DNA from: Escherichia coli
GTDB lineage: Bacteria > Pseudomonadota > Gammaproteobacteria > Enterobacterales > Enterobacteriaceae
Assembly: GCF_003334315.1 (NCBI RefSeq)
Contig: NZ_QOWR01000064.1
Direction: 5' to 3' (one strand)
Length of the DNA stretch: 25,996 bases
Part shown: in pieces, positions 1,194-1,640 of the stretch
How positions within the stretch are numbered: the stretch's first letter is position 1
Layout of the letters: each line of letters starts with the position of its first letter
The notes under the pieces: model-generated
What the model was told of the DNA's origin: nothing
The model's input: only the letters and a program-made list of their open reading frames with translations
Database searches by the model: none
Program-made: the position numbers and the translations under genes

Positions 1194-1263
1194 AGAAATC
1201 ACAGGGCATTGCTAATGCAGTTACGCAATATTACCTGAAGCTAAAAACCTGCACGTTAGCCCT

Positions 1264-1375
1264 TTGTAGGCCAGATAAGACGCGTCAGCGTCGCATCTGG
1301 CATAAACAAAGCGCACTTTGCTGGTCTGTTCCCCTCACCCTAACCCTCTCCCCGGAGGGGCGAGGGGACTGTCCG
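1264..1375. repeat. REP/BIME-type intergenic palindromic repeats
   Basis: GTAGGCCAGATAAGACGCGTCAGCGTCGCATCTGGCAT is a classic REP unit, followed by the recurrent CCCCTCACCCTAACCCTCTCCCCGGAGGGGCGAGGGGA palindromic element. Confidence 0.75.
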
Positions 1376-1402
1376 GGCACATTTTTAGACTTTGTCATCA
1401 GT

Positions 1403-1439
1403 CAGAGCCTGCCATTGGCAGGCTCTGGTGTTCTTTTAC
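1403..1439 (+). terminator. Rho-independent terminator at the end of the fim operon
   Basis: Perfect 11-bp stem CAGAGCCTGCC / GGCAGGCTCTG with loop ATTG (1403-1428), followed by the T-rich tract GTGTTCTTTTA. Confidence 0.7.
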
Positions 1440-1640
1440 GCTACCTTGCTAATAATCAGCCCAACCACGGAGTTGACCAGCTCCAGCAGACCCCAGGTTT
1501 TCAACGTGTCTTTTACTGACAGGTCAAAATTATCTAAGAGGCATTGCTAATGCAGCGAATGTGTCTGAACCTGCGGTCTTTGTCAGTACCAGCATCAGGC
1601 CAATGCCGAATACCACCCAGAGAATGTTAAGCACATGCAT
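1436..1640 (-). pseudogene. gntP: gntP (GntP-family fructuronate/gluconate permease) remnant: N-terminal ~19 codons joined to the C-terminal ~30 codons, interior (~1.1 kb expected) missing
   Basis: Minus strand reads ATG CAT GTG CTT AAC… = MHVLNILWVVFGIGLMLVL (GntP-like N-terminus), then drifts into stops. A different frame reads …[32 protein letters not shown] (GntP-family C-terminal tail, stop at 1438-1436). The fimH-stop to gntP-stop spacing (~243 bp) matches what I recall for K-12, which suggests the flanks are native. Confidence 0.7.

Follow-up and report, generated by a model that had tools for sequence, protein, structure and literature searches.

How does a permease gene come to be reduced to its two ends, and why does a 16-nt sequence near the scar recur, letter for letter, 335 bp away? 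These questions are raised by the fimH-gntP-uxuA region of an Escherichia coli strain (NCBI RefSeq assembly GCF_003334315.1, contig NZ_QOWR01000064.1), which was analyzed within a stretch of 25,996 nucleotides; we use the term window to refer to that whole stretch. The gene in question is gntP, annotated in E. coli K-12 as the fructuronate transporter. Only a remnant of it is present in the window, and the region probably represents a null allele of E. coli gntP that is both old and widespread. The parts of the locus that carry this argument are as follows, in window coordinates.

1436-1528, minus strand: 3' tail remnant of gntP, with its stop codon at complement 1436-1438; apart from the two changes described below, it is identical to intact alleles.
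1529-1582, minus strand: hyper-diverged 54-bp patch, homologous by global alignment to native gntP codons ~391-413.
1584-1594, no strand assigned: deletion junction, the single kept copy of an 11-bp direct repeat, CAGTACCAGCA, both copies of which are present in intact gntP.
1584-1640, minus strand: 5' head of gntP, codons 1-19, with the start codon at complement 1638-1640; the native promoter and ribosome-binding site follow on the right.
1530-1640, minus strand: remnant open reading frame (ORF) of 36 aa, which starts with the GntP N-terminus MHVLNILWVVFGIGLMLVL and comprises one hydrophobic helix and a variable tail.
1205-1220, plus strand: spacer copy of the 16-mer GGCATTGCTAATGCAG, placed by exact match, which holds the small palindrome GCATT-GCT-AATGC.
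1540-1555, plus strand: second copy of the 16-mer, in place of the native His-Ile-Asn-Asp-Ala codons and 28 bp from the junction 11-mer.

The remnant as a whole spans window positions 1436-1640 on the minus strand, and represents 205 bp of a 1,344-bp gene. When aligned to the K-12 fimH-gntP-uxuA region (locus L001), the window falls into two collinear blocks, with window 1101-1528 corresponding to L001 1619-2058 (95.7% identity, one 12-bp gap) and window 1583-2100 corresponding to L001 3240-3757 (99.6%). Approximately 1.1 kb of the gntP interior is missing between the blocks, and an earlier description of the locus made from its letters alone (hereafter the sequence-only reading), in which gntP was a head-plus-tail remnant lacking about this much, was accurate on that point. 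The DNA of the head (19 codons) and of the tail is 99-100% identical to K-12 gntP, and the remnant lies between the annotated fimH and uxuA genes, as expected of a gntP pseudogene. The full-length ORF of ~447 codons is lost, leaving only the 36-aa ORF and a 22-aa ORF in the tail. The PGAP/RefSeq annotation already flags the remnant, as a GntT/GntP/DsdX permease that is "incomplete; missing N-terminus".

The junction itself is simple. In intact gntP, the 11-mer CAGTACCAGCA occurs at L001 2128-2138 and again at L001 3241-3251; their spacing of 1,113 bp (371 codons) puts both in the same codon phase, and both specify the Leu-Val-Leu of an xLVL motif. The head-side copy supplies the LVL of codons 17-19, while the other supplies the LVL of ALLVL, ~371 codons downstream and just before ATAAGS. 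Intact gntP thus has the same short sequence at both end points, of which the window retains one copy, and the deleted length equals the spacing of the repeats (1,113 bp), so that the event was in frame and left codons 1-19 fused to the final 57. Replication slippage, or recombination between short direct repeats, classically yields such a product, and the history of the allele would accordingly have begun with an in-frame 1,113-bp deletion between the two copies by one of these routes. Deletion between short direct repeats is the usual route to bacterial pseudogenes. The sequence-only reading had put the 16-mer exactly at the junction; in fact the junction is the 11-mer at 1584-1594, which lies 28 bp to the right of the second 16-mer copy.

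The repeat is itself variable among intact genes. In many intact alleles (O157, 675SK2, E. coli E69, E. albertii) the tail-side repeat is CAGCACCAGCA, which matches the head-side copy at 10 of 11 positions, and the perfect 11-mer needed for the deletion itself is therefore polymorphic (L001 2128-2138; equivalents in L007, L009 and L011-L013).

The allele is not specific to this strain; it is common. Among 5,426 complete E. coli genomes, 854 (~16%) have the same junction. Most of these, 664, are at least 99% identical to the window (window-type) and include O26, O103 and O111 strains and ATCC 8739; a further 183 are 90-95% identical (B2-type; ~93% across the junction) and include IHE3034, 536, NU14, NC101 and FDAARGOS_1251. 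At four of the five sites where the B2-type differs from the window, it is the B2-type that is nearer to the native sequence. Additional haplotypes were obtained by a predicted-protein search with the remnant ORF, and all of them are E. coli by uxuA identity. Haplotype P0005 adds one window-type change to the B2-type, P0001 differs from the window-type only in retaining the GTAG that is also found in the B2-type, and P0003 and P0007 have further private changes. Our literature search on this gntP allele returned nothing relevant.

Between the junction and the tail lies the 54-bp patch, which was left unaligned by BLAST but is collinear with native L001 2059-2127 in a global alignment. It is only ~74% identical to the native sequence, compared to 99-100% in both flanks. 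The differences comprise ~13 substitutions (mostly transitions) and two deletions, one of 13 bp between 1535 and 1536 and one of 1 bp after 1556, which together leave the patch 14 nt shorter than its native counterpart. Some 12 of the substitutions and both of the indels are common to every deletion haplotype, and two sites within the patch show three different bases each among the haplotypes. In the second step of the proposed history, the patch on the 3' side of the junction would have gained these ~13 substitutions, from a cause that we address below, and the 13-bp and 1-bp deletions would have closed the reading frame.

Outside the patch, there is little to report. The head and the adjoining intergenic region have no substitution specific to the deletion alleles; the head carries one shared polymorphism, at 1599. 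The tail and spacer of the B2-type are identical to those of an intact O169 allele. In the window-type tail, the only changes are a 12-bp tandem-repeat deletion between 1450 and 1451 and one substitution (A>T at 1446). The 12-bp deletion arose by slippage at the tandem near-repeat AATAATCAGCAC/AATAATCAGCCC, of which one unit is gone, and is present in window-type alleles and absent in B2-type alleles.

The 16-mer GGCATTGCTAATGCAG lies within this patch and, in the window, occurs exactly twice, at 1205-1220 and 1540-1555, and nowhere else even when two mismatches are allowed; none of 100 shuffled sequences contained two 16-mer matches. The duplication described in the sequence-only reading is thus real, although its first copy begins one base further right than the 1204-1219 given there. 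The second copy is in register with native codons Thr400 (1 nt)-His401-Ile402-Asn403-Asp404-Ala405 (L001 2083-2098), and the native 16 nt are already similar to the spacer 16-mer, with 11 of 16 identities in K-12 and 12 of 16 in other intact alleles such as O169:H41. Because it is in register and shares these identities, the second copy is mutated native sequence and not an insertion. The spacer copy is also found in strains with intact gntP (O157, O169, 675SK2, 19AR1724; K-12 has GACATTGCTAATGCTG), and therefore is independent of the deletion.

These results alter the meaning of the repeat. The sequence-only reading had interpreted it as a templated-insertion or recombination scar, and had held that an alignment placing the 16-mer in native gntP coding sequence would tell against this. 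The alignment largely does so, since the 16-mer occupies the native register, with 11-12 of 16 identities; the true scar is the 11-bp repeat. The same reading had also considered a chance recurrence unlikely, and here the evidence supports a relationship between the two copies beyond chance, but one that came about by four point changes and not by inserted DNA. The templated-insertion reading is therefore wrong in its anatomy, although in taking the spacer as a template it may have been right in spirit.

Several features point to the spacer as a partner in these changes. In the 3.46-kb intact locus, no other sequence matches the native 16-mer as well as the spacer 16-mer does (12/16). All four mismatched positions have changed to the spacer base, all four by transition, while none of the 12 matching positions has changed. 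Two of the four changes complete the palindrome GCATT-GCT-AATGC, which makes it probable that perfecting of the hairpin contributed. Three of the four are common to all deletion alleles, and the fourth (T>C at 1553) is absent in the B2-type, P0005 and P0001, so that the B2-type copy (GGCATTGCTAATGTAG) matches at 15 of 16 positions and the window copy at all 16. The patch changes accumulated stepwise, with the 16/16 identity as the end point of a series, and in the third step of the proposed history a native 12/16 quasi-repeat of the sequence just after the fimH stop would have become first a 15/16 (B2-type) and then a 16/16 (window class) repeat. A short templated mutation, in which replication switches template to the quasi-repeat, is the best explanation of the 16-mer that we can offer; it is unproven, and we favor it by a modest degree.

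The main rival is chance convergence in a neutrally decaying pseudogene, helped by the prior 12/16 similarity and by a transition-biased mutation spectrum. That all four changes are transitions, gained in more than one step, is what such a process would produce, and the patch has many other substitutions, several haplotypes and the two three-state sites. The spacer copy itself also varies between strains (K-12 and P0005 have GACATTGCTAATGCTG, and P0007 has a copy ending in GCTG), and a repeat that was found by looking for repeats is subject to a selection effect. However, when 13 random substitutions were simulated (n=3,000), a new exact match of at least 13 nt anywhere in the locus arose in 1.0% of trials (P ~0.01) and one of at least 16 nt in 0.03% (P ~0.0003), and chance would also have to convert four of four mismatches to the partner base while sparing all 12 matches in a patch that is otherwise ~25% diverged. 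We consider convergence unlikely, but of the alternatives it is the one to be taken most seriously.

Whatever its origin, the repeat has had a consequence. In haplotype P0010 (L099, L100), seen as DNA in GCA_958325575.1 and SRR36243874 and in 115 contigs of the protein collection, where it is named as a hypothetical protein of E. coli HVH 190, the 16-mer that follows the fimH stop is a fusion, its left half being that of the spacer copy and its right half that of the junction copy (...AAAGAAATCGCAGGACATTGCTAATG|TAGGGAATGTG...). The gntP tail, the terminator hairpin and the spacer between fimH and gntP are all lost, so that the remnant ORF now overlaps the end of fimH. P0010 is the product of a crossover between the two 16-mer copies. 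In this fourth step, the two copies acted as direct repeats in another E. coli lineage, with deletion of the spacer and the gntP tail between them. The top-ranked complete RefSeq genomes did not show P0010 in one piece.

Taken together, the junction, the patch and the repeat are most probably the outcome of a deletion between short direct repeats followed by stepwise change of the patch, part of it perhaps templated by the spacer. A number of observations weigh against this account. A deletion of this kind should leave its flanks unaltered, and this holds for the head side but not for the tail side, where 54 bp are ~26% diverged and contain two indels; such dense, one-sided divergence is not predicted by a simple microhomology deletion. 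Templating explains neither the remaining ~9 of the ~13 substitutions nor the excess divergence of the patch. No clean-junction ("young") allele was found in the complete genomes or among the predicted proteins. The 16/16 identity was reached stepwise, and its final T>C is homoplasious among the haplotypes; in other strains the copies are only 13-15/16 identical, since the spacer copy also varies (P0005, P0007). The shared 13-mer (P ~0.01) was noticed after the fact, which makes its significance modest. In addition, candidate templates of 9-10 nt are nearly as frequent in unrelated segments of the window. Finally, haplotype P0011 (L097, L098), from two metagenome assemblies (ENA ERZ18631896 and ERZ18631517), has a different junction on a window-type patch: between the patch and the 11-mer stand 21 nt of native gntP from next to the head (AATTGATTTTGAACTTCAAAT). 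The proposed history does not predict this structure; our guess is that it arose by recombination with an intact allele at a 3-nt microhomology.

Other origins were considered for the patch and its junction. One sequence, E. coli HH45 (L091, NZ_CP116411.1), has the same deletion end points and an undiverged native patch, which would make it the clean-junction allele, but the patch is followed by a poly-C run and garbled bases (GCCCCCCCCCCCCCCGGACTCAT). It looks like a reference-guided or poly-G assembly artefact and not a real allele, and was rejected. A hybrid of two diverged internal repeats was rejected because the patch matches the native head-adjacent sequence at only 3 of 22 ungapped positions, and a strand-coordinated deamination cluster because one and the same strand has both C>T and G>A changes. 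A patchwork of nearby templates (the fimH 10-mer AGGGAATGTG, the gntP-interior segments GCGGTCAT and ATGTAGGG, and a uxuA 12-mer) was seemingly significant against random-mutation simulations at k = 9-10, but unrelated window segments cover nearly as many of the changes, and for this reason only the spacer 13/16-mer was retained as a template. In E. coli 23AR1101 (L104, NZ_CM132250.1), an IS5-family element (ISKpn26-like) borders on the patch inside the 16-mer, with all of the sequence to the left of the element replaced.

The density of changes in the patch would also be explained if the deletion were far older than the E. coli crown, with recombination with intact alleles refreshing the head and the tail but not the bases adjacent to the junction, whose replacement would restore the gene. 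The patch would then be an ancient neutral island, alone in recording the true age of the allele. Several observations are consistent with such an age: the deletion occurs in both B2 and A/B1 backgrounds; the flanks around it belong to several haplotypes, and the ~60 bp on the right are free of linked private variants; the haplotypes differ from one another at ~4-5 positions per 54 bp, which is roughly the neutral divergence between phylogroups; and the flanks are less variable than the patch. The ~12 stem changes shared per 54 bp would, however, imply an age of ~5x the crown depth, yet the representatives of E. albertii and Escherichia sp. have intact gntP. A zone shielded from refreshing should also exist on the head side, but the 20 bp to the right of the 11-mer are without a shared change where ~4-5 would be expected by our calculation, assuming that ~20-25 bp of identity are needed for a crossover. 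On balance this origin seems doubtful. Should CAGTACCAGCATCAGGCC be found in other Escherichia species preceded by sequence other than the gntP head, an ancient origin or an introgression would be supported.

Two more speculative readings, which we hold only tentatively, are that the patch is a persistent mutation hotspot, with template switching among quasi-repeats and a small hairpin by the junction, or that it marks a presence/absence polymorphism older than the E. coli crown and kept by balancing selection on hexuronate use. Either, if true, would be a natural, population-scale example of a process that is usual only in reporter assays, and under the ancient polymorphism the patch would be the sole surviving record of the age of the deletion.

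An import of foreign DNA, either a diverged gntP orthologue or a GntP-family paralogue, acquired as a mosaic that was mostly deleted later or by gene conversion, is improbable. The ~26% divergence is of the level seen between genera or paralogues, on its right the patch ends exactly where the deletion lies, and the nine codons closest to the junction have half of their changes at third positions, with conservative replacements (A-M-T-A-G-S-D-T-F vs A-T-A-A-G-S-N-T-L), all of which are in favor of an import. A functional donor would nevertheless be expected to keep the conserved His-x-Asn-Asp of the family, all of which is changed here, and searches for it were negative. An exact scan with the invariant 22-mer of the patch gave 0 matches in 100,044 species-representative genomes; among the best 80 gntP orthologue loci, in which the genus Escherichia is represented only by E. 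coli, E. albertii and Escherichia sp. MOD1-EC7003, the best match to the patch is the E. coli sequence itself (37/50); and a 71-bp junction query at E<=1 matched only this locus in the 5,426 complete genomes, with no second E. coli copy. The discovery of GAATGTGTCTGAACCTGCGGTC inside any full-length gene would revive the possibility. Least probable of all is an origin of the 16-mer as filler, copied out of the fimH-gntP spacer into the breakpoint as the deletion formed, of the kind produced by microhomology-mediated break-induced replication: the exact 16-nt copy is on the same strand and only 335 bp away, the abnormal patch adjoins the junction, and P0010 shows that the copies can interact, but the native register of the 16 nt means that nothing was inserted, the patch is 14 nt shorter than native and not longer, the breakpoint microhomology is 28 bp away, and the B2-type, as well as P0001 within the window-type lineage, is identical at just 15 of 16 positions.

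The surroundings of the remnant are those of an ordinary E. coli chromosome, with fimH, the gntP remnant, uxuA, uxuB, uxuR and yji genes in the window. The neighboring features are listed below.

1-453, no strand assigned: end of an IS1 element (insB-like ORF at 61-438) inserted in fimH; its terminal sequence ...GGAGTCATTACC stops at 453.
454-1193, plus strand: 3' part of fimH, with the stop codon TAA at 1191-1193; the translation ends ...GVTFVYQ, aligns to K-12 fimH and has matches that are annotated as fimH.
1401-1429, no strand assigned: terminator-like hairpin between fimH and gntP (13-bp stem and T-run).
1641-1979, no strand assigned: divergent gntP-uxuA intergenic region, intact and 99.6% identical to K-12, with no deletion-specific changes.
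1980-4705, plus strand: uxuA (1980-3164) and uxuB (3245-4705), both intact ORFs, annotated as mannonate dehydratase and fructuronate reductase.

IS1 thus also disrupts fimH, which encodes the type 1 fimbrial adhesin, in this strain. It is whole in the closely related, near-identical genome 2017.13.01CC, and the IS1 insertion is therefore specific to this strain or to a subset of its relatives. To the left of the terminator hairpin are a REP-like repeat (~1269-1307), with a partial, below-threshold match to the REP-derived naRNA4, and a GC-rich Box-C-like repeat (~1320-1400; ~70 bp in all, core ...CCCTCTCCCCGGAGGGGCGAGGGG...). The Box-C-like repeat is present in K-12, 19AR1724 and window-type alleles and not in O157, ST131, O169 or B2-type alleles, and its presence or absence is independent of the gntP deletion. 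Within the remnant, the search for known RNA or regulatory elements gave just sub-threshold REP-type matches and the expected terminator hairpin.

The loss of gntP has a plausible physiological meaning. The statement in the sequence-only reading that the strain lacks the fructuronate transporter and keeps uxuAB agrees with the K-12 annotation of the remnant gene and with the intact uxuA and uxuB ORFs, and from this annotation and the known pathway we infer that a dedicated fructuronate importer is lost. Fructuronate that the cell itself makes from glucuronate is also handled by the products of uxuB and uxuA. Retention of uxuAB is thus expected despite the loss of gntP, because both genes are still needed for glucuronate catabolism. 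A hydrophobic peptide of 36-38 aa could still be made from the remnant, since the gntP promoter, the ribosome-binding site and the first 19 codons are intact. A functional small protein was considered and rejected: the C-terminal half varies by amino-acid-changing substitutions and shifting stops, with no sign of constraint.

Approximately one in six sequenced E. coli lacks gntP, including O26, O103 and O111 Shiga-toxin strains, ATCC 8739 and several B2 uropathogen lineages, and this absence is relevant to metabolic models and to studies of gut colonization. The locus also illustrates how a pseudogene may shrink within one species, from the intact gene through the 1,113-bp deletion and small indels, then through a repeat that goes from 12/16 to 15/16 to 16/16, and finally to a repeat-to-repeat deletion. 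It is suggestive, but only that, of short templated mutations creating repeats that are later used by deletions. Overall, the locus is a case of ordinary gene decay: its allele is common, the pseudogene is already annotated as such, and known processes are at work. The patch and the repeat-then-deletion series are a modest curiosity, and the understanding of gntP or of the uxu regulon is unchanged.

Compared with known systems, the remnant resembles E. coli K-12 GntP (b4321; GntP/GntT/DsdX family, PF02447), with which it shares the identity of the head and tail and the place between fimH and uxuA; it differs in that only 205 of 1,344 bp are left, from which no permease can be made. In its junction, the locus resembles deletions between short direct repeats, by slippage or RecA-independent illegitimate recombination, in the repeats at the end points, the one kept copy and the length equal to the spacing, and the 12-bp loss in the window-type tail is the same process at a tandem repeat; however, plain slippage leaves its flanks unaltered, while here 54 bp on one side are dense with changes. 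Templated insertions at rearrangement junctions (fork stalling and template switching, microhomology-mediated break-induced replication) also have a short exact copy nearby, close to the junction, but in the present case there is no net insertion, and the copy is collinear with native sequence, lies off the breakpoint and arose in more than one step. The 16-mer may also be likened to templated mutation at quasipalindromes and quasi-repeats; quasipalindrome-associated template-switch mutation is established in E. coli (PMC7202029). The prior 12/16 repeat, the change of every mismatch toward the partner and the two changes that complete GCATT...AATGC are all shared with that system, and a nearby partner and conversion to its bases are both found here. 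Classic events of this type differ in changing several bases at once, in or by one hairpin, whereas the partner here is a direct quasi-repeat ~290-350 bp away, with at least one of the changes made later.

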